IMG/VR virus record: IMGVR_UViG_3300045049_000079
Coordinates: 1-64,000 of that record
Reading direction: 5' to 3' (one strand)
Source: a virus
DNA: 64,000 nucleotides
How positions within the stretch are numbered: the stretch's first letter is position 1; each line of letters opens with the position of its first letter. Made by a program: the position numbers and the translations under genes. This document shows, piece by piece, positions 8,593 to 55,569 of the stretch. The notes under the pieces were generated by a model that was given only the letters and a program-made list of their open reading frames with translations, was not told where the DNA came from and did not search any database.

Positions 8593-9549
8593 TCATAGTT
8601 CAATCTCCAGTTTTGTAAGAAGCTTACGAGTGTCGAACACATCATTATCAAAACGTTTCATGTGAGCACACGCAGCGTACATATCCATAATTTCGACAAC
8701 ATCCTTAGTGTGCTCTGTGCCGTCCCACGCGGTGTATGTTACAGGTTGAGGATACCACTTCTTGTATTGGTTGTACACTGCTTGTACAGCGCTCTTATCA
8801 TCATTACAATCTTTAAGCAAATTGCAGCATGCTACATCACCAAACTTTTTCTTAGCAATTTCGGACGGTTTAAATGCATCTACGGGGTCTCCCATCACCC
8901 ATTGGGCATAGAACCATTTCCGCCCTTTGCCACGAAGCTTCTTATCCTCGTCTAACTCGATTTCACCAAAACCTTTGATACGTTCCGGCTTATCCATCTT
9001 GGTCCAGTTGTACAGCCAAGAATCAACACCATAGCTATCTTTGTCAAGACTGATAACAATGTTCTTAGTTCCTTGTTTGAAACCTTCGTAAGCTCTGTGC
9101 GCAAGCCTGTCGTCTGCTTCCATGCCATCTACAGGAATAGCACCGTGACGCTTCACCAAGTACTCTCTGCACTCTTTCAACTGTACAGGTCGAATGTTGC
9201 CTTCTCGCGTTCCTTTATATCGACTTGGAAGGGGTAGCTCATCTCTAAAGTTTCCTTCACCGCTGATGTATATCTCGTAAGAATCGGCTTCACACTTTTT
9301 CATCCAAGCTTCGATACAAGTGTTGATGGCATGATAAGCATGGCTCAGGTCTTCGCATGTTTGTACATCTTCAATGTCGAATTCAGATTCTTCAAAGCTT
9401 CCACGGATGTGCTCGCGGAAAGCTGTGCGATGTGCGTGCTCAGTTTGTTGTCCTGTTACTTTATGCGTTACACGGATGCTGCGAGTTTCGTTGGCAGCGG
9501 CACAGCGAAAACTTAGGATATCGCCGTCAATGATTAAGATTGTTTTCAT
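8593..9549 (-). CDS. 5'-3' exonuclease (T7 gp6/FEN-like)
   Basis: IIDGD, NFR...YKGTR, MEADD, SLDKD, MGDPVD motifs. Confidence 0.9.
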   Translation of the reverse strand: MKTILIIDGDILSFRCAAANETRSIRVTHKVTGQQTEHAHRTAFREHIRGSFEESEFDIEDVQTCEDLSHAYHAINTCIEAWMKKCEADSYEIYISGEGNFRDELPLPSRYKGTREGNIRPVQLKECREYLVKRHGAIPVDGMEADDRLAHRAYEGFKQGTKNIVISLDKDSYGVDSWLYNWTKMDKPERIKGFGEIELDEDKKLRGKGRKWFYAQWVMGDPVDAFKPSEIAKKKFGDVACCNLLKDCNDDKSAVQAVYNQYKKWYPQPVTYTAWDGTEHTKDVVEIMDMYAACAHMKRFDNDVFDTRKLLTKLEIEL

Positions 9550-11757: not shown

Positions 11758-12240
11758 TTAAACCTCAAATGTCAGTGTTTGCTCAACCTGACGAATCACC
11801 ATAAACTTCAGCCCAAGCTTCTCGATCATCGGCCTTACAACATCGTTGATATAAATTCTGTTAGCAGGGACGGTATTAATTTCGTCGTTATGCAGGTTAA
11901 TCGCTTTGCCAGGATTCTGAATAGCCTCTGCAATTTGCTTCATAGCGTGTGCTGTTGTCTTACCACAACCTCGCTTATTCTCTACAATATCCTTGATCAT
12001 TTCTTTGCCAAAGTGGCGATCCCCGTACAACTCTTGTTGAAGCTTGTTCAGTTTTGGTGTAAATCGCTGTTCAATAAGTTTTTCAAACTCTTCTCGAAGT
12101 TCTTTTTCGTTGCGCCCGTAGACAGTGAAGCTATTTCCGGCGCAAACATTACTTAGAAGACCAACACTGAAACTTTTAAACTTGTCAGTTTCCCCGTCGA
12201 GAACCTTATTGCCATTTGAATCATAAATATAAAGACTCAC
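11758..12240 (-). CDS. hypothetical protein with a truncated terminase-like P-loop
   Basis: RGCGKTT...A...NPGKAI; ends before any Walker B. Confidence 0.6.
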   Translation of the reverse strand: MSLYIYDSNGNKVLDGETDKFKSFSVGLLSNVCAGNSFTVYGRNEKELREEFEKLIEQRFTPKLNKLQQELYGDRHFGKEMIKDIVENKRGCGKTTAHAMKQIAEAIQNPGKAINLHNDEINTVPANRIYINDVVRPMIEKLGLKFMVIRQVEQTLTFEV

Positions 12241-13888: not shown

Positions 13889-15829
13889 TTAGTGGATGTC
13901 ACTGTACTTATCTCCAAATTTAATATCGCAGGCAAGCTCTCGGTTAAGCTTCAACTGATCGTTCACTGCCTTAAGTCCATCTGCCACAACATTCTTATAT
14001 TCCTCTTCCTTATCGTCGTCAAGCTCGATAATAAGCTCATCGTGGAACTGCCCAACAAGACACCAACACAAACCCCGCTTCTTGGCAATGCGCTCACAGT
14101 GATAAAGCCACAAATCAAGAATATAAGAGCCTGTACCCTGAATCAAAGTAGAAAATCTGTCCTTATCAGATCGCAGCGAATACCACATCTTGTTGATCGG
14201 GTTGATCTGCCATTCGCCAAAGTCCGTCTTCTTCACAACCATCATCTTAGCGATCTTGGCAATTGACCAGTTCATTTGATGGTACGCAGCGTGCAGCTTC
14301 TTGGCAACAGCAGTACTCACTTTGGCTGTGCGTGCAATCGTCGCAACACCGGCCCCGTACTGACACGCATAGTTAGTGGACTTGCCAACAGCACGAATCT
14401 CGTCAATGCGCTTAAACTTCTTATCATTCTCTGTTGCGTGCTCACTATCTGGCAAGCCTTTGTAATATGCGTGCCAGTCTGCCTCTTCTTGCGTCATCAA
14501 CCCTGCAATCACGGCAATGGTGTTGTGCGGGTCGAAGCCCTTCGTCATTTGCGACTTGACGTATTCGGGATCAAGCTTCCACTGGAAGTGATGTTTCAGA
14601 CGATCCTCCAAACTGCTCAGGTCTGAACCGAGCAGGCGCTTGCCGGGACGTGCCACAAGCAAGCCACGAAGCTCCTTGCCGTACTTCACACGAAGACTGG
14701 GGAGATTGACACACTCTCGATGCTGAACCCTCAGAGTGTTGGTCAGCCCCTGCATTCGTGCCGTCACTTCACCATCGATATGATCCCGCAAGAAGCCTTT
14801 TACAACACTAACACGATGGTTGAGAATACCCAAACCTGCAATGTGCTCAATACCTGCACATTTAGGAATCAAATCTTTCACGCTCTGGCAAATCTCGCCC
14901 CCCTTAAGATTGATCTGTGGGATGTTCCTATCAGGTTCACCATTTTCACCTCGCACAAATTTTAAAGTTTGCGGTTCCCAACCCAACGAATCGAGCCAAG
15001 CTTTAATCTGCGTGTGTGAGGCTGGATTGCCTTCCTTCCAATCTTTGATAACCTTGATGTCGTCCTTATGCTCAAATGGCAATCCCGCAGCTTCCGTCAC
15101 TTCCTTCCAACGCTTGCCTGCCTCAGAAAGCTCACCATTCTTCTTAAACGGTGCGGCAGGGCGCTTCCGCACAACATATTCAGGAACCTTCGGCATCACC
15201 TGACGAAGTGCCTCAGTCTTCTCAATGATTGCTGCTTCAAGTTCTTCTTGCAATTTGATTGCACCCTCAACATCAAGCTTCCAACGATTTTCCTGCTGCT
15301 GGCGAAACTCTTCCATCTTCTGCATCAAGTAGGCAATAATCTTCTTATGTGCGTCAGGTTCTTTGCCATACAACACGTTCAACTTTGCCACTTGCCTCTG
15401 CCACAACTTTTTCTGAATCTTACAGTCTTCTGTTACACGATGGTTGTACTCTTCCTGAGTTTGATTCTCCCAGTCTTCAATCTCAGGCTTTGGCACTCCA
15501 AACTCTTCGCCGTATTCTGCCAAGCCATGCTTCATGCGGTTAGGCTCAAGATACCAGCTAAGCGGCAAAGAATCAATAAGATTTACTTTGGACACATCGT
15601 AGCCGAGAAGCTTAAGGGCTTCCATATCAAACAACTTACCGTTGTGCATAATGAGGGTATGCCCTTCATCCAAAAACGCCTGCACTTTGTCCCGCTCGTG
15701 CCCTTCAATGAGAATCGTCAAAGGTGAATCAATGTCGATTGCGCAGATGTTATGCAGCCTCGGATTGGCCTGTTTTTGCATCTGCTCCAAAAGCCCGCTA
15801 GTTTCAATGTCTGCTGCAAATACACCCAC
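13889..15829 (-). CDS. family A DNA polymerase with 3'-5' exonuclease (T7-like)
   Basis: ExoI ADIETSG, ExoII HNGKLFD; motif A DLSSLEDR; motif B KSTNYACQYGAG (Tyr at the T7 Y526 position); motif C QFHDE. Confidence 0.97.
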   Translation of the reverse strand: MGVFAADIETSGLLEQMQKQANPRLHNICAIDIDSPLTILIEGHERDKVQAFLDEGHTLIMHNGKLFDMEALKLLGYDVSKVNLIDSLPLSWYLEPNRMKHGLAEYGEEFGVPKPEIEDWENQTQEEYNHRVTEDCKIQKKLWQRQVAKLNVLYGKEPDAHKKIIAYLMQKMEEFRQQQENRWKLDVEGAIKLQEELEAAIIEKTEALRQVMPKVPEYVVRKRPAAPFKKNGELSEAGKRWKEVTEAAGLPFEHKDDIKVIKDWKEGNPASHTQIKAWLDSLGWEPQTLKFVRGENGEPDRNIPQINLKGGEICQSVKDLIPKCAGIEHIAGLGILNHRVSVVKGFLRDHIDGEVTARMQGLTNTLRVQHRECVNLPSLRVKYGKELRGLLVARPGKRLLGSDLSSLEDRLKHHFQWKLDPEYVKSQMTKGFDPHNTIAVIAGLMTQEEADWHAYYKGLPDSEHATENDKKFKRIDEIRAVGKSTNYACQYGAGVATIARTAKVSTAVAKKLHAAYHQMNWSIAKIAKMMVVKKTDFGEWQINPINKMWYSLRSDKDRFSTLIQGTGSYILDLWLYHCERIAKKRGLCWCLVGQFHDELIIELDDDKEEEYKNVVADGLKAVNDQLKLNRELACDIKFGDKYSDIH

Positions 15830-17544: not shown

Positions 17545-19194
17545 TTAGAATTCTGCAACCATCTCGTCTACAAGCAACACGTCCCATGTGTCTTCGTCAA
17601 TCGAGAACTCGTCAGCTACACCAAGATAGCTCCAAGGACGATTCTTAAGCACTGTTGTCCGAACATTACCACGGCTACGATCTGGCATGATTTGTGGCTC
17701 AAGACCGATAATAATCCAGCTAAGCTGTTCCAAAGCGGCAGAACCCCGCATCATTTCTTTCGTCACCTTCACCCAAAACGGCTTGTCCTCTTCGCCCTTC
17801 GGAGGTTTAAAGTCTTGTGCTGCTGTGCGGTTGATATGTGAGACAGCAATGATGCCAACATCATTAGCAGCGCAAAACGCAGCAAGCTCAGTCATAACCA
17901 TGTCAAGCTCTTTACGCTCGTTAGCAATGTCACTGCCGCTGATGACCACGCTCAAATGGTCCAGAATAATGTACCCACACTTCTCTACAAGGTGCATATG
18001 CTTGATTTTAGCCATAAGCTCTGTAATCGGCAGAGAGCCAAAGTGACCAAGCATAACAACGCTATCATTCGCAACAATCTTGTCGTAAGCAACCTTGATG
18101 TCTTCCTTGCTGGCGCACGACAGAGGGTCATTCTTAAACTTGTTATAGTTTACACGAAGTTCAGCAGCAACCATTCGTTGAAGCGTCTCGCGGTTGTTCT
18201 CTTCCAGATAGATCATACCGACGCGCTCACCCGCCTTTTGCAGTCCACTGCCGATAATACTCGTCACTGTCGATTTGCCAACACCAGATGGTGATGTAAC
18301 AAGAACAAGCTCGCGCTTACGGAAGCCGTGAATTTTACGCATCAGGCCGGGGAAGCAGTCGATGTAGATGCCCTCTTCACGGGCTTCAATAAGCTCGTCA
18401 AAGCTGATGTCAGACGCCTTAACAATCTTCTCCGCACTATACGCACGCTTGCCGAATTGCACAAGCTTGGCGAGTTCCTGAGAGCAGCCATCTTGCATCA
18501 TGTCAGAGGCGTCTTTGTAGCTCCCCGGAGTCGTCAGCGTAAATAGTTGAAGATTCGATCCAACAAGAGCATTACCAACAGCTTCACGAGCCTCGTGACC
18601 CTTCATGATGTTCTTTTTCTTCTCCGCTGGCGTACAATAATCGTCATCGAAGAACATCGTCAAGGATTCAAAGCCGTGCACAAATTCATTGTTGTGCAGT
18701 ATGGCTTCGACAGCGTTTGCGGTTCCGAGCGGGATACTGACAATGAATGGTTCAAGGCCAGCGTACTTCGTACCTTTCACATCGTCAACGACCGCCTGAA
18801 ATGCGGACAACATGTCCCATCCACCTTCTGTCACAACAAGATTAGTCTTCTTACGTTTCACCTCTTCAGCAACATCTTGACCAAGAAGCTTATTACCGAT
18901 GGACACACTACCAACAGCAGTCCAATGTCGCTTCTCGCTCTTATCAAGAGTCCAATCTTGTTTCATGTAGCCAGTGACTTTGCCCTTCTGATTATAAGAA
19001 GGGAAATACACAGCTTCAATCGTCTTACCATCTTTAGGTGATACAGCAGCACGTACACCGTATTTCTCGCAAGTTTCTTTGCGAATTCCGCGAGACGGAA
19101 TGTCTAGAAATGGAAGTTCCAGAACATCCTTAACTGTCTCTTTTGGAACATAGTCCGTCATTGATTCCTCCTTTTGACCCTTCCAATATCCCAT
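17545..19194 (-). CDS. T7 gp4-like primase-helicase lacking the N-terminal zinc-binding domain
   Basis: TOPRIM TEGGWD, FDDD, KDASD; SF4 helicase SPSGVGKST, ILDHLS, VSHINR, RGSAALEQ, LKNR. Alternative start 19161 (AAGGAGG). Confidence 0.95.
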   Translation of the reverse strand: MGYWKGQKEESMTDYVPKETVKDVLELPFLDIPSRGIRKETCEKYGVRAAVSPKDGKTIEAVYFPSYNQKGKVTGYMKQDWTLDKSEKRHWTAVGSVSIGNKLLGQDVAEEVKRKKTNLVVTEGGWDMLSAFQAVVDDVKGTKYAGLEPFIVSIPLGTANAVEAILHNNEFVHGFESLTMFFDDDYCTPAEKKKNIMKGHEAREAVGNALVGSNLQLFTLTTPGSYKDASDMMQDGCSQELAKLVQFGKRAYSAEKIVKASDISFDELIEAREEGIYIDCFPGLMRKIHGFRKRELVLVTSPSGVGKSTVTSIIGSGLQKAGERVGMIYLEENNRETLQRMVAAELRVNYNKFKNDPLSCASKEDIKVAYDKIVANDSVVMLGHFGSLPITELMAKIKHMHLVEKCGYIILDHLSVVISGSDIANERKELDMVMTELAAFCAANDVGIIAVSHINRTAAQDFKPPKGEEDKPFWVKVTKEMMRGSAALEQLSWIIIGLEPQIMPDRSRGNVRTTVLKNRPWSYLGVADEFSIDEDTWDVLLVDEMVAEF

Positions 19195-19553: not shown

Positions 19554-19939
19554 CAACCCTCCTTAAACTTCACCTCATGTCCAGACATCGCCAACAAGTC
19601 ATAAAGTTCTTGTGCCATCTCCTGCAACGTTTGCGACTTGTTAAACTCAGCAACCAACCCATGTCCACCTTTCCAGTTTGTTGCCCAAACATGGACACCT
19701 TCAGAGTGTGCTTCAATTTCAAATTTATCATCAAACTTCGGCATATTTATCTCCAACGCTAAGCCAGCTATCCTTCTCCACCTTGACAATCCACATATCC
19801 CTATACTTCAACACAAATTCGCCCTTAGCCTTGTCGAGCAGAGCAGCCTCCTTGTCACCTAAGAAGAGATATTTAGGGCTGCGTCCAGTTTCTCCGACAT
19901 AACTGAGCCATTGATGCTCGATCTTGTCTGTGATGGTCA

Positions 19940-20320
19940 TCACCACGCCTCCAAACGCTCAACAATGCCGATGTCGGTATAGAATCCGCTAGGCTCTGGA
20001 AATGGCTCTTTATGGTATCGCAGCTTAACTTTAAGCATATCTTTAGTACGAACATCAATCTTATGCTCAGCTATAACATGCGTCCATTGGTAGCCCGATA
20101 ATTCCCATGCGATATCTTCACGATAGTTCACGAGGACAACTTGCCCGCTGCTGCTCGACACATAACGCCCAGAACTGGCCTTATATACACCCAGCCCAGT
20201 CCAGTTCTCGACAAACTGCAATTTCTGTCGAATATTGTTGGCAATCAAACAGACAAAAGCGTTAGGATCATTATCCGCAATAGTTACAGCTTTGTATAAC
20301 ATATCTTCAAAACTTTTCAT
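19940..20320 (-). CDS. truncated, degenerate paralog of the terminase large-subunit ATPase domain
   Basis: Aligns by eye to this phage's TerL from just after Walker A to past Walker B (see findings). Confidence 0.65.
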   Translation of the reverse strand: MKSFEDMLYKAVTIADNDPNAFVCLIANNIRQKLQFVENWTGLGVYKASSGRYVSSSSGQVVLVNYREDIAWELSGYQWTHVIAEHKIDVRTKDMLKVKLRYHKEPFPEPSGFYTDIGIVERLEAW

Positions 20321-20453
20321 TGCAGCCCCTTCTCAAACTCACTAGCAAACGCAAGAATCTCGCTCTTAAGCGACTCCAAACAAAACTCGCCATCAAAATG
20401 AAAGCTGTCCTCGTTCATTTCGAGGTAGGCTATTAGGTCGTAAAATGTTTGCT

Positions 20454-22388: not shown

Positions 22389-22417
22389 ATGGTACAGGGC
22401 TGTTGAGCGGCTGTCAA
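22389..22417 (-). promoter_or_regulatory. sigma70-like promoter for the envelope module
   Basis: TTGACA-17-TACCAT on the minus strand. Confidence 0.65.
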
Positions 22418-23133
22418 GGATAATTTTCAAGCAGAGCATTTAAGCTTGCAGGGAAGCGATCCTGTACGATTGTTTTAATTTGTTCCGCCACGATGCGAGT
22501 TTCAGCTTGCGTGTATGGAGACAAGCGCAGCACCAGCATGTCAGCAAACGCACCAAGCGTACCGCTCCAAATCCACTCTGTCATGACCGATTGTGGAAGC
22601 ACCATGCGGGCCTGCTCAGCACACACTTTGTTCGCCAAAAGCCAACTGTAAAGGTTCAATGGAAGTTGGGTGAAATCCGCTGTAGACCACGCTTTGTCAA
22701 TGTCCTCGTAGTCACCAGCAAAAAGGAACTCTTTGTTAGCAACTTCCTCAGCACTTCCTTGCTTGACATTCTCAGCTTTTAGGCGCCATTCACTGGGAAC
22801 ATAAAACTCTGGCTCACTATCAACATAACGACGGCTCACCTCATTCCAAGGCATGAACTTATGCTTTACAAGTTGGCGGGCTACGAAAACCGGGGCCTTC
22901 ACACGGACAGTAATAAATGCGTGATTGAAGGGCGATTTATGCTTATGTTTGGCAAGATAGTTAATAAGCTTCTTATCAGTATCTTTTAACACAAGATTAT
23001 CGTCACCGAATTTGTCTGTCCCTACAGATGCCCACTCGCTTTGTTTGTCGAACGACACTCTAGCTGCGTTCACGACACTAAGATCGCTGCCGCAATGGTC
23101 AATGTATTCTACTTTAATATCCGCTACCTTCAA
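22414..23133 (-). CDS. thyX: flavin-dependent thymidylate synthase
   Basis: VNAARVSF, HKSPF, VARQLVKH...NEVSRRY, EQARMVLPQ, TQAETR. Confidence 0.95.
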   Translation of the reverse strand: MKVADIKVEYIDHCGSDLSVVNAARVSFDKQSEWASVGTDKFGDDNLVLKDTDKKLINYLAKHKHKSPFNHAFITVRVKAPVFVARQLVKHKFMPWNEVSRRYVDSEPEFYVPSEWRLKAENVKQGSAEEVANKEFLFAGDYEDIDKAWSTADFTQLPLNLYSWLLANKVCAEQARMVLPQSVMTEWIWSGTLGAFADMLVLRLSPYTQAETRIVAEQIKTIVQDRFPASLNALLENYP

Positions 23134-23369: not shown

Positions 23370-23738
23370 TCACCAATCATATTCAAAAGAGTACAAGTTC
23401 TTGGACAGCACATCTTCCTTGAACGCTACAATGTCAATTTCTGCGACATCATCTACCATTTCTTCCAAACTCTCTAAAATACGATCTACACTCACTGTCT
23501 CATGGCGTGCAGCAGGCACATAACCATCATACGAAACAAAATCGTCAGGTACACCTTTAAAGTATTTGAGGAAGCAGTAGTGTTGTCGCAAATCAGCAGG
23601 TGCATTCATGAACACTTCCCAGCGCTCATCAAGCGGAATCGATTTGTCTGCAATGTACACCTCAAACTCTCGCTTGATTGCTTCAATTTGTTTGTTGAGG
23701 TCTTCTACTCGTTCTTTGAAGTTCACACAGCCTCCCAC
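23370..23738 (-). CDS. hypothetical acidic protein
   Basis: ORF in operon. Confidence 0.6.
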   Translation of the reverse strand: MGGCVNFKERVEDLNKQIEAIKREFEVYIADKSIPLDERWEVFMNAPADLRQHYCFLKYFKGVPDDFVSYDGYVPAARHETVSVDRILESLEEMVDDVAEIDIVAFKEDVLSKNLYSFEYDW

Positions 23739-52903: not shown

Positions 52904-54145
52904 ATGGGCATCAGTAAGCCTTCCATTTTTGTTGGTGACATCTTCGACACTAAGAACTACGGCAAAGTAGAAATTTTAGAGTACGTCAAGTCGACGGATA
53001 TCACAGTAAAGTTCTTGAACACTGGAAGCATCCAGAAGACTAATTCATCGCAAGTTAAGAACGGCATTTTGAAAGATAAGACCGTTCGGTTGTACGGTGT
53101 GAAGGTGGGCGAGGTGTTTGACACCAGTCACTGTGGGAAATGTGAGGTTGTAGAGTACATCCACGCCAAAAAGATTCTTGTTAAATTCTACGAGAGCGGA
53201 AAACTCAAGTGGACAAACTCCTCACAACTTAGTTCAGGAACGGCGTCCGACATTGATCCTTGTGACAGGGTATCGTTGGGAGACATCTTTGAGAACACTG
53301 ATGGTTTTAAGGCAGAAGTGACGGCTTTGCACTCGGGGTCACGCTTCGACGTGCGGTTCGAGGACGGTACTGTTAAGAATGTCAGCATCACAGCGCTTAA
53401 GAGTGGGAAGTTCTTGAAGGGTACATGGAACTATAGCCAAGATGAAGCTATCGAGGCCATGAAGGTGGTTCACGGTGATCGCTATGACTATAGTCTTGTT
53501 GAGTTTAAGGATGTTAAAAGCAAGGTGAAAGTCCGTTGCTACACTCATGGTATCTTCCAAATATCCTTTGACAATCACGTCAATTCTGCACATGGTGCTC
53601 ATCCGTCAGGGTGCAGAAAGTGCGCCATCGAAGCACGTGCAAAAGCTAAGACACTCGATGCAAGTCTGTTTGTAGAAGAGGCAATTGCACTAAACGGCGA
53701 CAGGTATACGTATAACATGTTTGACTATACCACACGAGACAAGAAGATTCAGATTACCTGCAATGACTGTGGTAGTACGTTTAAGCAATCTCCAGAAAAA
53801 CATCTTGGAGGAAGAGGGTGTCCTTCCTGCGCTAAAACAGGTTTCGACCAGACGAAGCCGGGTGTTGTGTACGTACTTTCGTGCGAAAACCTTACCAAGA
53901 TCGGCATCACTAACAAGAAAGCAGAATCCCGAGCCAAAGATATCAGCACGTCGTATGGTAAAGATTTTACCGTTATACGCGAGTTTCCTATGAGTGGCAC
54001 ACTATGCGCCGCCTTAGAGCGGGCAATGCTTACATATTTGAAGAAGAATTATGAAAGGCCATCAACAAAGTTCAACGGGTATTCGGAATGTTTTCTTGGG
54101 TTGAGGCCGGATGACCTAGTGGAGATGTTGGAGTGTCTAACGTAA
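52904..54145 (+). CDS. putative homing endonuclease upstream of terL
   Basis: Three N-terminal VG(D/E)xF...V.F..G repeats; VHGDRYDY/Zn repeats; GCPSCAKTGFD..KPG.VY...KIGIT nuclease domain. Confidence 0.8.
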   Translation: MGISKPSIFVGDIFDTKNYGKVEILEYVKSTDITVKFLNTGSIQKTNSSQVKNGILKDKTVRLYGVKVGEVFDTSHCGKCEVVEYIHAKKILVKFYESGKLKWTNSSQLSSGTASDIDPCDRVSLGDIFENTDGFKAEVTALHSGSRFDVRFEDGTVKNVSITALKSGKFLKGTWNYSQDEAIEAMKVVHGDRYDYSLVEFKDVKSKVKVRCYTHGIFQISFDNHVNSAHGAHPSGCRKCAIEARAKAKTLDASLFVEEAIALNGDRYTYNMFDYTTRDKKIQITCNDCGSTFKQSPEKHLGGRGCPSCAKTGFDQTKPGVVYVLSCENLTKIGITNKKAESRAKDISTSYGKDFTVIREFPMSGTLCAALERAMLTYLKKNYERPSTKFNGYSECFLGLRPDDLVEMLECLT

Positions 54146-55569
54146 AAAAAGATAAAAAGCCAAAGTTCCAGCCTTGCAGCGAAAAGCAACGGCTGGTTTT
54201 GAAAGAAAATGAAGTAGATCTGTTCCTCACAGGAGGAGGCGCGGGAAGCGGAAAAAGTTTCCTTTCGTTGCTCAAGGCCGCAGGGGTTATACAAGACAAG
54301 AACGCTAAAGTGATGATCCTCCGTCTCACTTATCCAATGCTGAAAGACCTTATCAGCGCATCAAAACAAATTTACCCTCACTTTGGGGGTGTTTGGAAGG
54401 CACAAGCCCGTACATGGGTATTTGCCAACGGCGCGGAAATCGACTTTAAAGCAATGCCGAAAGATTTGCTTGAGGTACAGGGTTGGGAACGCACGCATTT
54501 TATCATCGACGAAGCGGCGGAGTGGCAGCAAGATCAAGTTCTAGCTGTACTTTCTCGTCTACGCAGTGCAACATATACTGGCAAAAAAAGTCTTATGATG
54601 TCCTGCAACCCGTCCAAAACTAGCTGGTTACGTCCTGTGGTAGATTACTCTCTAGATTCGGAGGGCGTACCTTTGCCGGGAACTGAACACAGAGTTCGTT
54701 ATTTTGTTGTGCAGAATTCCCACTTTAAATGGGCAGATTCCGAAGAAGAGTTGTATGAGAAATACGGTCAAGGTTTGGAGCGAGGTAAAGAGTTCGTCGC
54801 CTTGAAATTTAAATTCTGCCCGATGACGTGCTATGACAATCCAGCCTTGTTGAAAACTGACCCTGGATATGTTGGTCGTCTTCTTTCCCAGCCTCGCGTT
54901 AACCAATTGCGACTACTTTATGGGTCATGGGACGCGGAGGTGCTTGGAAGCTCGATGGTGCGGGAGGACATGTTTGAAATAGTAGAGCATCCACCAATTA
55001 ATCCGGTTGCCAAATTTAGGGCATGGGACTTGGCAAGTTCTGTGCCGAACGAAGCTAACGGTTTTAAATGCGACTGGACGGCTGGTGTACTGATGTCAAA
55101 AGACGCACTTGGGAATTTCTACATCGAAGATGTTGTTAGGTTCCAAAAGCAGATTGATGGTGTGCTGAAGGGTATTAAAGATACCGCATACAAAGACGGG
55201 CTGGATGTTACGCAAATTGTACCATGTGATCCGGGACAGGCCGGAAAGGTGGCGAATAAATTTTATGTGACTTTTTTAGCGTCTCACGGTATTAGCGTAA
55301 AAACTGAAGGTGTGAACCCGCATAGTAATAAAGTAACACGTTTTAATCCCTTCGCGAGTGTTGCTAACAACAACAGTGTAAAAATTGTAAGAGGAGACTG
55401 GAATAGAGACTGGTTTGACGAAGTTTGCTTTTTCTCTGGAGAAAGAAAAAATGTCGATGACCAAGTTGACGCCACAAGCTCGGCATTCAACCATCTTGCA
55501 CGTCAAACTGTTATGCCCGTGTTCTCATTGTCCGTTTTTACACAACCCTCACCAATCCCCTCCCTATAA
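54133..55569 (+). CDS. terL: terminase large subunit
   Basis: Walker A GGGAGSGKS, Walker B FIIDEA, SCNP; nuclease RAWDLA...DWTAG...DDQVDA. Confidence 0.96.
   Translation: MSNVKKDKKPKFQPCSEKQRLVLKENEVDLFLTGGGAGSGKSFLSLLKAAGVIQDKNAKVMILRLTYPMLKDLISASKQIYPHFGGVWKAQARTWVFANGAEIDFKAMPKDLLEVQGWERTHFIIDEAAEWQQDQVLAVLSRLRSATYTGKKSLMMSCNPSKTSWLRPVVDYSLDSEGVPLPGTEHRVRYFVVQNSHFKWADSEEELYEKYGQGLERGKEFVALKFKFCPMTCYDNPALLKTDPGYVGRLLSQPRVNQLRLLYGSWDAEVLGSSMVREDMFEIVEHPPINPVAKFRAWDLASSVPNEANGFKCDWTAGVLMSKDALGNFYIEDVVRFQKQIDGVLKGIKDTAYKDGLDVTQIVPCDPGQAGKVANKFYVTFLASHGISVKTEGVNPHSNKVTRFNPFASVANNNSVKIVRGDWNRDWFDEVCFFSGERKNVDDQVDATSSAFNHLARQTVMPVFSLSVFTQPSPIPSL

Follow-up and report, generated by a model that had tools for sequence, protein, structure and literature searches.

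The gene and its parent clade

Why would a soil phage carry, in its replication arm, a small stand-alone gene that looks like part of its own large terminase (TerL)? The window, i.e. the whole stretch of 64,000 nucleotides analyzed here (positions 1 to 64,000 of the IMG/VR record IMGVR_UViG_3300045049_000079), contains such a gene at 19940..20320 on the minus strand, a strand that the earlier note on this DNA had not given. The open reading frame begins with ATG and encodes 126 amino acids; we call this cut-down TerL ATPase core mini-TerL. Its location in the replication arm, as previously claimed, is borne out: the gene belongs to a thyX/primase/polymerase operon and lies on the strand opposite to the packaging genes. 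TerL itself (54133..55569, plus strand, 478 aa), a member of the parent clade, is identified by Pfam (Terminase_6N 1.3e-11, Terminase_6C 2e-12) and by PHROG (phrog_979 1.9e-131). It contains the Walker A motif GGGAGSGKS (residues 34-42), the Walker B motif IIDE (D126, E127) and the segment SRLRS, in which R142 and R144 are invariant across 26 TerLs of the clade. We consider it highly probable that mini-TerL is a paralogue of the TerL ATPase core that has lost its N-terminal part and its catalytic activity, that it comes from the same clade as the phage's own TerL, and that selection maintains it as an accessory gene which is dispensable and shuffled horizontally.

The earlier note had aligned the two proteins by eye, and the six peptide segments it quoted are all present (at residues 8, 43 and 96 of mini-TerL and 46, 85 and 139 of TerL). 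Pairwise BLASTP leaves the claimed region unmatched (best E 0.89, elsewhere in the protein), and the ungapped 44-mer of the by-eye alignment scores 17, a value equalled in 37% of 300 shuffles. A gapped Smith-Waterman alignment keeps the same register and pairs residues 2-101 of mini-TerL with residues 41-143 of TerL at a score of 56, reached by 1 of 2000 shuffles (mean 31.4, s.d. 4.9); among the 49 ORFs of at least 150 aa in the window, TerL is the top scorer. The resemblance was then confirmed by hhalign, in which the mini family (A1, 12 sequences) matches the TerL clade (A2, 26 sequences) with a probability of 96.1%, an E-value of 3.6e-9 and a score of 64.6, aligning residues 7-104 of the ORF to residues 45-147 of TerL. 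Column shuffles score 14-15 on average and at most 22.8, so that 0 of 120 reach the observed value, and reversed A2 scores 15.4.

Is mini-TerL a copy of the phage's own TerL? When the window and 38 related loci were searched with an HMM of A1, the only other match was TerL (E 6.9e-6), and in two related records the same HMM picks up TerL too (E 3.6e-6 and 1.7e-5). Across the clade, the A1 profile matches 106 of 121 TerLs at E<=1e-3, with the window's own TerL ranked 9th, which points to an old derivative of the clade rather than a recent copy. The descent claimed earlier is better stated at the level of the clade than for the phage's own gene. Two segments, KA..I.NDP.A.V and the hairpin G..K...-W/Y-.-NG/SGG..I.F, are common to mini-TerL and the TerL clade of the window, as are G-x-x-TH-hhh and sR[LI]R[SY]. 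Because none of the 12 family members matches Terminase_6N at E<=1, mini-TerL is to be regarded as a derivative and not as a member of this Pfam family.

Pfam, PHROGs and NCBIfam hold no family for mini-TerL (the best Pfam matches, TTD at 0.014 and StiP at 0.1, fall under the cut-offs), and phrog_24138 is matched by one of the 12 members (0.0037). A search of PDB sequences with the family profile returned no terminase, the best hit being ribosomal protein L29 at 0.041; this search is uninformative, because the profile of the TerL clade itself matches no PDB chain at E<=0.001.

The remains of the ATPase core

The predicted fold of mini-TerL is confident, and its ASCE core is closest to the ATPase domains of TerL proteins. 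The TerL domains compared were those of D6E (5OE8), P74-26 (4ZNL), Sf6 (4IEE), PhiV-1 (8DGC_E) and T4 (2O0H), with which mini-TerL shares the ASCE core topology from α1 to β4; within the D6E chain the model aligns solely to residues 46-171. The structural comparison with terminase ATPases that had been proposed earlier does find a resemblance. In a BFVD structure search, 15 of the best 50 matches carry the name terminase, without any other class of enzyme being named, and an independent model from the ESM Atlas matches terminase clusters with TM-scores of 0.61-0.67. Foldseek against the PDB gives weak E-values, the best TerL match being at 0.072, with four YfiR rows ranked higher by E-value (TMq 0.33-0.37).

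The protein spans helix α1, which follows the P-loop, a β-hairpin, the Walker B strand, the arginine-finger loop and the β4 region. Unlike TerL, it has no lid subdomain, no nuclease domain (Terminase_6C finds no match in the 126 residues), no Asp-Glu pair at Walker B and no Walker A P-loop GxxxxGK[ST] with its preceding strand β1, and it is not a packaging enzyme. This supports the previous description of a stand-alone version of the terminase ATPase without a nuclease domain. On the other hand, the ORF does not start just after the position of Walker A, as had been stated, but inside it: the Smith-Waterman alignment pairs M1-K2-S3 with G40-K41-S42 of GGGAGSGKS, and only 4 codons are open upstream of the ATG. 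The N-terminus reads MK[TS] in most of the 18 family members, and K2 is kept in 16 of them.

At Walker B, the hhhhDE motif is absent, and hhalign places E85 opposite D126 and H86 opposite E127. The earlier reading of AE in place of DE was right that no Asp-Glu pair is present, but it was off by one residue. Among the 18 members, 1 has an acidic residue in the Asp column and 13 have one in the column of the catalytic Glu, where the mini-TerL of the window has His (H86). The motifs that are kept comprise α1 with its NDPxA loop, the β-hairpin, the Gly that precedes the Walker B strand, an invariant His within this strand, and an RxR motif. [quoted passage not shown] In the large terminase of D6E, PMC5727402 describes E143 as the catalytic residue and R158, between α3 and β4, as a proven trans-finger. 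RxR lies 15-17 residues past the catalytic Glu, and from the E143-to-R158 spacing we infer that the Arg of mini-TerL would be the equivalent of R158.

Because mini-TerL has neither the P-loop strand, nor the Walker B Asp, nor the nuclease domain, canonical ATP binding and hydrolysis have almost certainly been lost. As the protein is presumably non-catalytic, it must act by binding something.

Family, selection and distribution

The mini family is small and unnamed and consists of 18 distinct sequences, all full-length down to about 30% identity, with conserved N- and C-termini and without internal stops. A 70-aa fragment (P0014) is part of A1 but was left out of this count. Two longer proteins, P0009 (915 aa) and P0013 (601 aa), carry collagen-like repeats, of which 4-5 match residues 22-65; they were treated as spurious and excluded from the alignments. 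The family is rare: a search of 1.84 billion representatives yielded 11 of them and a fragment. Neither megablast nor tblastn matched mini-TerL to any of 50,697 phage records, and pattern scans of IMG/VR with P0001 and P0002 gave no relatives. Among the papers listed by literature searches, none describes the family or a demonstrated terminase decoy; the word "decoy" in PMC13581612 is used in the mass-spectrometry sense only.

Selection was estimated through dN/dS, as had been proposed earlier. The one unsaturated pair, the mini-TerLs of loci L003 and L040, gives pN 0.24, pS 0.74 and dN/dS of about 0.09, i.e. purifying selection. Of 38 primase-anchored loci, 2 carry mini-TerL; counting just the 23 whose upstream flank extends to at least 4 kb, the figure is 2 of 23. 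The two records whose primase genes are closest lack it. Between the window and L003, mini-TerL is 38% identical and the primase 86.5%; between the window and L040 the corresponding values are 39% and 27%. This incongruence between mini-TerL and the core genes suggests an accessory, mobile gene.

Could mini-TerL then be a functionless, decaying remnant of a duplicated terminase gene, or a chance resemblance? The non-significant pairwise BLASTP and the rarity of the family would fit, but we consider this very improbable in view of the full-length members with conserved ends and no internal stops, the low dN/dS of the unsaturated pair, the probable translational coupling at both ends of the gene, the confident fold and a profile match far above shuffles.

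Genomic setting and expression signals

In the window, mini-TerL lies between thyX and the primase-helicase gene, 1.6 kb from its thyX-side neighbours. It directly follows thyX in L003 and L040, and directly precedes the primase gene in L037. Read from the sequence, a Shine-Dalgarno-like GAGAAGGGG (20326..20334, minus strand) stands 5 nt before the ATG, and the stop of an upstream 46-aa ORF overlaps the mini-TerL start in ATGA (20317-20320, minus strand). At the other end, the mini-TerL stop overlaps, in TGATG (19938..19942, minus strand), an in-frame start codon (ATG) of the small ORF that follows (19731..19946), which suggests translational coupling to that ORF.

The nearest strong upstream consensus match on the same strand is a promoter-like TTGACA-17-TACCAT (22389..22417, minus strand, 10 of 12 positions), found by a consensus scan only. 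It is a candidate start for an operon that would run through mini-TerL into the primase-helicase gene; the scan returned 14 sites against 7.5 ± 2.9 in shuffles and is not evidence of function. The basis for the supposition that mini-TerL may be expressed ahead of the late TerL is its position together with this promoter-like site. Of the sequencing runs listed, the two full matches are a soil and a rhizosphere metagenome, which may be the source sample itself, and none is an RNA run.

A candidate second terminase fragment at 11758-12240 aligned to TerL by hhalign with a probability of 2.8% and had no homolog in the 38 related loci. The Atlas returned nothing above 0.80 and no model for it, and the single-sequence fold, with a pLDDT of 40, was unusable.

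Possible partners of mini-TerL

We tentatively propose, at somewhat less than even confidence, that mini-TerL would imitate the structure of the monomeric TerL ATPase domain; produced from the replication-module operon, it would be directed towards a partner that normally reads this fold. The most likely such partner would be a host immune receptor that senses terminases, of the Avs1-3 or Upx type. The proposal draws on precedent, and the immune background given in the earlier note is sound: Avs2 and Avs3 bind TerL ATPase domains (PMC13601566, PMC11564622). Ksap2 (KpAvs2-stimulating protein 2, Bas60_220; MZ501100.1 124604-124939) binds and activates KpAvs2 (PMC11564622), and T4 vs.8 (NP_049732.1, 219 aa), which is homologous to the T4 TerL ATPase, is toxic with EcAvs2 (PMC13601566). 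The outcome could be either that the sensor is blocked, with mini-TerL as a decoy or antagonist, or that mini-TerL is merely detected, as Ksap2 and vs.8 are by Avs2. The decoy previously envisaged, which would occupy sensors without activating them, is not supported as written. The published small phage proteins of this kind that were put to the test, Ksap2 and vs.8, do the opposite; the authors of PMC13601566 raise an anti-defence role of such proteins as no more than a possibility. The published anti-Avs proteins described in 10.1101/2025.06.06.658234, the ORF55 ligase and the DprA/Smf-like ORF83, are not terminase mimics.

Several points speak against the mimic. The published Avs interfaces include ATP in the TerL active site, a "bridging ATP" contact for EcAvs2 and the nuclease domain for SeAvs3 (PMC13601566), and mini-TerL is without much of this, having neither the ATP contacts, nor the rest of the ATPase domain, nor the nuclease domain. 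The link to Ksap2 has an hhalign probability of 65% only, and that of the Ksap2 family directly to the TerL clade is 3%. Moreover, a TerL protomer as the partner would more readily account for the conservation of RxR and K2-T3.

Such a partner is the essence of a second explanation, which we think rather unlikely. Here mini-TerL would be a pseudo-subunit of the packaging motor that binds a TerL protomer at the ring interface and offers its RxR finger to the ATP site of the neighbour, without an active site of its own, so as to cap, delay or poison oligomerization. The target could be the phage's own TerL (timing control) or that of a co-infecting relative (inter-phage competition). The near-complete retention of RxR opposite the invariant R142 and R144, its distance from the catalytic Glu, similar to that in D6E (PMC5727402), and the loss of the cis elements (P-loop, Walker B Asp) with retention of the trans element match the pattern of a regulatory pseudo-ATPase. 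However, the gene is dispensable, being found in 2 of 23 adequately flanked related loci, and it is not tightly paired with one TerL, as the TerLs of the records that carry it share just 39-44% identity with one another's clade members. RxR could also be structural, and it is invariant in Ksap2 as well, whose only known partner is an Avs2 sensor (PMC11564622).

Alternatively, the TerL-derived fold may have been exapted in the replication/nucleotide-metabolism module without any link to the terminase, with ThyX, RNR, the replisome or a host protein as the partner, for example; we find this equally doubtful. Mini-TerL directly follows thyX in L003 and L040 and lies between thyX and the primase-helicase gene in the window, and Ksap2 is encoded between nrdA and nrdB; both families therefore reside in nucleotide-metabolism/replication operons, far from packaging. 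Against this, the position varies (directly before the primase in L037, 1.6 kb off the thyX-side neighbours in the window), the small genes of the region are generally shuffled, and adjacency alone is weak evidence.

The mimic reading can be carried one step further, to an extension that we regard as improbable. Mini-TerL and Ksap2 would be two branches of a TerL-derived "self-mimic" class, whose native job would be to antagonize terminase sensing by Avs1-3 and Upx, filling the TerL pocket without the ATP-dependent activating contacts. Some Avs2 variants, KpAvs2 among them, would in turn have evolved to be activated by the mimic itself, and the truncation at the Walker A lysine would be adaptive.

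Comparison with known systems

Whichever reading holds, the mini-TerL gene should not be annotated as terminase. It joins a class of small terminase look-alikes that was noticed only recently: Ksap2 and vs.8 were recognized in 2024-2026 as unexpected triggers of Avs2, and their function for the phage is called open by the authors (PMC13601566). To this class the mini family adds a look-alike whose descent from TerL can be proven by sequence, beyond a weak fold match, and it probably links TerL and Ksap2 in sequence. Part of the relation between Ksap2 and TerL may already stand in Supplementary Figs 13-16 of PMC13601566 (structures of Ksap1/2 and vs.8 versus TerL) or in Supplementary Data S9 of PMC11564622 (Ksap2 homologs).

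Mini-TerL is also a natural "minimal" version in which the arginine-finger motif is kept and the ATP-binding loop is gone, so a single gene for 126 residues makes two hypotheses, the immune mimic or decoy and the motor pseudo-subunit, cheaply testable. For the latter, regulatory pseudo-ATPase subunits of RecA/ASCE machines, such as the Rad51-paralogue Shu complex (5XYN), offer an analogy in the way of working only; 5XYN has no sequence relation to mini-TerL and scores below every terminase match.

Like mini-TerL, vs.8 is a stand-alone, nuclease-less and lineage-restricted paralogue of the ATPase domain of its own TerL type, and its gene adjoins denV, away from the packaging genes. In contrast, vs.8 comprises an entire ATPase domain in which both Walker A (GGRQSGKS) and Walker B (IIDE) are intact (PMC13601566); mini-TerL, about half as large, has lost the two motifs. 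Because hhalign finds no sequence relation between vs.8 and the mini family (0.5%), they have separate origins in different TerL clades.

Ksap2 (111 aa) is the closer parallel, as a small stand-alone phage protein without catalytic motifs that shares with mini-TerL a narrow, patchy taxonomic range, a similar type of operon and the RxR motif. Pairwise comparison, and tblastn over 50,697 phage records, detect no similarity between mini-TerL and Ksap2. An hhalign comparison of the two families, however, gives 65% (41% with the single sequence) and an E-value of 6e-5 over 65 columns in the same register, an AG-aromatic-Q-F strand followed by RxRY, at a score reached by 0 of 150 shuffles. Ksap2 is thus probably a distant relative of mini-TerL. 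It lacks the N-terminal α1/β2 part and differs in its C-terminal helical tail, and the mini family matches the TerL clade at 96%, versus 3% for the Ksap2 family; for Ksap2, on the other hand, binding and activation of KpAvs2 are experimental.

Genomic setting of mini-TerL

The mini-TerL gene (19940..20320, minus strand) encodes 126 aa from an ATG start and lies within a long minus-strand gene string that runs from thyX towards the polymerase/exonuclease side of the window, which takes in positions 1 to 64,000 of a linear virus record of 89,830 bp (CheckV completeness estimate 75%). Ahead of the start codon of mini-TerL is the Shine-Dalgarno-like sequence GAGAAGGGG. The gene overlaps its neighbours at both ends: its start codon shares bases with the stop codon of a 46-aa ORF (ATGA), and its stop codon shares bases with an ATG in frame with the next small ORF (TGATG). 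On this strand, thyX (23133..22414; Pfam Thy1, 9.6e-42) is followed by a promoter-like site (22417-22389), ORFs of 119 and 351 aa, three small ORFs and mini-TerL; four small ORFs then lead to a primase-helicase (19194..17545), a family-A DNA polymerase (15829..13889) and a weakly matched 5'-3' exonuclease (9549..8593). Upstream of thyX lies a 122-aa DUF7020 ORF (23370-23738, minus strand; Pfam 4.7e-19), which shares 60% identity with its counterpart in L040, another locus carrying mini-TerL. A 160-aa ORF (11758-12240, minus strand) contains a GCGKTT motif; its hhalign probability against the TerL clade is 2.8% (E 0.016), no homolog was found among 38 related loci, its best ESM Atlas score is 0.80 and its single-sequence fold has a pLDDT of 40. 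No clear terminase match emerges from these values.

The TerL gene (54133..55569, GTG start) is far from mini-TerL and on the opposite, plus strand. Its product comprises Terminase_6N and 6C domains (phrog_979 at 1.9e-131), and it is 38.8% identical to its nearest cultured relatives, from phiPsa374-like phages of Pseudomonas syringae. A 413-aa ORF (52904-54145, plus strand), whose 3' end reaches 13 bases into the TerL gene, occupies a position in which one might look for a small terminase; by eye, its N-terminal segments are internally repeated. The genomes are mosaic, the TerL proteins of four related virus records (G002-G005) being only 38-45% identical to that of the window. The mosaicism is strong in G004 and G005, the records behind loci L001 and L005, where the primase-helicase is 85-88% identical to the window's.

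Descent from the TerL clade

The earlier note had aligned mini-TerL by eye with the ATPase core of TerL. All six quoted peptide segments are present, and the pairwise evidence for the resemblance is marginal: BLASTP gave no match in the claimed region, and an ungapped 44-mer scored 17, a value equalled by 37% of shuffles. Smith-Waterman alignment with gaps in the same register scored 56; of 2000 shuffles, one attained this value. TerL outscored the rest of the window's 49 long ORFs.

Searched exhaustively with phmmer, a set of 1.84 billion representatives contained 11 full-length relatives (121-131 aa, 30-44% identity) together with one fragment and a pair of repeat proteins. A profile search yielded five further clusters; counting two copies read from IMG/VR loci, 18 distinct full-length sequences are available. 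The repeat proteins P0009 (915 aa) and P0013 (601 aa) are collagen-like, Gly-rich and tail-fibre-like, and were set aside as spurious; their matches to residues 22-65 (E 2.6e-7 and 1.7e-4) involve 4-5 repeats of the stretch and probably reflect chance amplified by the repetition.

The resemblance was settled by homolog-based profile comparison. Alignment of 12 mini-TerL sequences with 26 TerLs of the clade by hhalign (Prob 96.1%, E 3.6e-9, score 64.6) reproduced exactly the register proposed by eye, placing residues 7-104 on TerL 45-147. Scores after sixty column shuffles per alignment averaged 14-15 and never exceeded 22.8, and the reversed TerL alignment scored 15.4. In six-frame ORFs of the window and the 38 loci, TerL was the sole other match of the mini-family HMM (E 6.9e-6), as it was in two related virus records (3.6e-6 and 1.7e-5). 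Separately, G004 has, within a 280-aa open frame (G004:C1:53273-53524, minus strand), a second, weak match to residues 10-86 of TerL itself (E 8.5e-6); this may represent a different P-loop protein or a further fragment resembling TerL. The mini-family HMM matches 106 of 121 clade TerLs at E<=1e-3, and because the window's own TerL ranks just 9th, the gene is an old derivative of the clade. The TerL-ATPase resemblance is thus confirmed, and what had been called a mini-copy of the phage's own TerL does descend from the TerL clade, though not through recent copying of the window's TerL gene.

Motifs lost and retained

The truncation of mini-TerL falls precisely on the lysine of Walker A, and the protein has no canonical nucleotide-binding loop. 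It begins M-K-S, aligned with G40-K41-S42 of TerL, so that β1 and the glycine-rich P-loop are lost; the open frame upstream of the start extends for only four codons. The Walker B aspartate is lost as well (the column is acidic in one of 18 members), and the lid subdomain and the nuclease domain are absent. The retained features are K2 (16 of 18 members), T/S3 (15 of 18), K10 and A11, the ADNDPNA loop corresponding to the TerL consensus INDPAA, the invariant G44 with the SGG..V.F hairpin, and the invariant G76 and H81. The catalytic-Glu column is acidic in 13 of 18 members and is His in the window's protein. An R[IL]R motif aligns with the invariant R142/R144 of TerL SRLRS, and 17 of 18 members have its second Arg. 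The trans-arginine finger of D6E TerL, proven by experiment, is R158, between α3 and β4; the catalytic Glu of that protein is E143 (PMC5727402). Since the spacing from E127 to R142/R144 in TerL matches that from E143 to R158, R101 of mini-TerL most likely occupies the finger position, judging from register and spacing.

Predicted structure

AlphaFold2 on the 12-row alignment gave a model (pLDDT 88.8, pTM 0.85) with helices 4-17, 30-35, 70-74 and 90-98 and strands 22-27, 45-47, 52-54, 60-65, 81-84, 112-115 and 120-122. Every aligned range opens immediately beyond the Walker A lysine and closes shortly past the β4/C-motif region, so that mini-TerL corresponds to approximately the central half of the TerL ATPase domain. 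Given the ASCE sheet order, loss of β1 would trim one side of the sheet and not its centre.

Foldseek retrieved named terminases from BFVD; matches in the PDB were weak. No PDB entry reached E<=0.001; four YfiR rows led by E-value (TMq 0.33-0.37), followed by Sf6 TerL (E 0.072, prob 0.95, TMq 0.57). BFVD gave nine matches at E<=0.001, and its top 50 comprise 15 named terminases, two intein- or homing-endonuclease-bearing proteins (760-855 aa) and otherwise unnamed or uncharacterised proteins, some of them query-sized (about 108-162 aa). Several of the latter align with the model over almost its whole length (TMq 0.54-0.67): phage proteins from Mycobacterium phages Ryadel, DirkDirk and Catdawg, Arthrobacter phage MargaretKali and Pseudomonas phage phiPMW, among others, and also three entries without a name (127-130 aa). 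Agreement is poorer for the Caulobacter phage Sansa protein (TMq 0.45, rmsd 11.4). Terminase clusters (TM 0.61-0.67) were also retrieved with the model, of lower confidence, that the ESM Atlas itself provides for this sequence, and a 115-aa viral cluster there carries Terminase_6N on 27% of its 83 members. Mini TerL-core proteins may be widespread.

Selection and distribution

In the only unsaturated pair, L003 and L040 (66% aa identity), dN/dS is about 0.09 (pN 0.24, pS 0.74), and even here dS approaches saturation. None of the mini-TerL copies has an internal stop.

Among 38 IMG/VR loci collected around a related primase-helicase gene (63-88% identity; at least 4 kb of upstream flank in 23 of them), only L003 and L037 carry mini-TerL. 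It is absent from the closest-primase records G004 (88%) and G005 (85%), both incomplete, and the third carrier, the 100%-complete 87-kb record of L040, came from a motif scan. The gene directly follows thyX in L003 and L040, directly precedes the primase in L037 and lies mid-operon in the window. The thyX stop overlaps the mini-TerL start in two carriers (L003 6048-7405; L040 9255-10381). Between the window and L003, mini-TerL is 38% and the primase 86.5% identical, and between the window and L040 the values are 39% and 27%; by these identities, divergence of mini-TerL does not track that of core genes. Sporadic presence, varying position and incongruent divergence together match a mobile accessory gene and not a core component of packaging.

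Possible function and comparison with Ksap2 and vs.8

Mini-TerL is a folded, conserved and dispensable derivative of the TerL core, and we infer that it acts by binding. One plausible partner is a host sensor recognising the fold of the TerL ATPase, an immune mimicry that we favour tentatively. The gene is accessory and shuffled, probable kinship links it to Ksap2, and both tested proteins of its kind are bound or sensed by Avs2. Ksap2 (Bas60_220) is reported to bind KpAvs2 in co-IP and in pull-down during infection and to trigger KpAvs2 toxicity (PMC11564622), and vs.8, a sequence homolog of the T4 TerL ATPase with intact Walker motifs, is toxic with EcAvs2 (PMC13601566). However, these precedents activate Avs2 rather than block it, and much of the published Avs interface is missing from mini-TerL; EcAvs2 is described as binding the TerL ATPase domain partly via terminase-bound ATP and a "bridging ATP" (PMC13601566). 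The earlier note's proposal is partly supported: it holds for a non-catalytic TerL-core derivative, but its special case of immune mimicry, silent occupation of Avs sensors, appears rather unlikely.

Regulatory pseudo-ATPase subunits retain the trans element and lose the cis site. Mini-TerL, with its trans-acting RxR kept and its cis-acting site lost, could likewise be a pseudo-subunit of TerL itself, but we consider this doubtful, as the gene is dispensable and not paired with a particular TerL. The location of mini-TerL directly after thyX in two carriers and of Ksap2 between the genes for the RNR α and β subunits places both in nucleotide-metabolism operons, and an exapted role in a replication or nucleotide-metabolism module, unrelated to terminase, is a possibility to which we also give limited weight. 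A remnant or a chance resemblance is, beside the profile controls and the conservation, very improbable.

Selected portions of the literature contain no description of the mini-TerL family and no demonstrated terminase decoy; the anti-Avs proteins known from such portions are a ligase and a DprA/Smf-like protein (10.1101/2025.06.06.658234). Mini-TerL is a new, unnamed family, of a kind recognised in print in 2024-2026. One of its closest comparisons is Ksap2, a 111-aa protein encoded between nrdA and nrdB of Bas60 (L046 24605-24940), whose family has an invariant RxR. Seven Ksap2 homologs (45-94% identity to Ksap2) align with the mini family in the same register over 65 columns (hhalign 65%, E 6e-5), and the score of 31.4 was reached by none of 150 shuffles (maximum 20.2). 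We regard the kinship as probable and not proven, because shuffles do not preserve secondary-structure likeness. Compared directly, the Ksap2 family and the TerL clade give an hhalign probability of 3%, and mini-TerL would be a probable bridge between the two. In contrast, vs.8 (219 aa) has both motifs that mini-TerL has lost, GGRQSGKS and IIDE, and is unrelated to the mini family in sequence (hhalign 0.5%), which argues for an independent origin. The value of mini-TerL lies in combining, in the replication arm, a provable TerL ancestry with a probable bridge to Ksap2.
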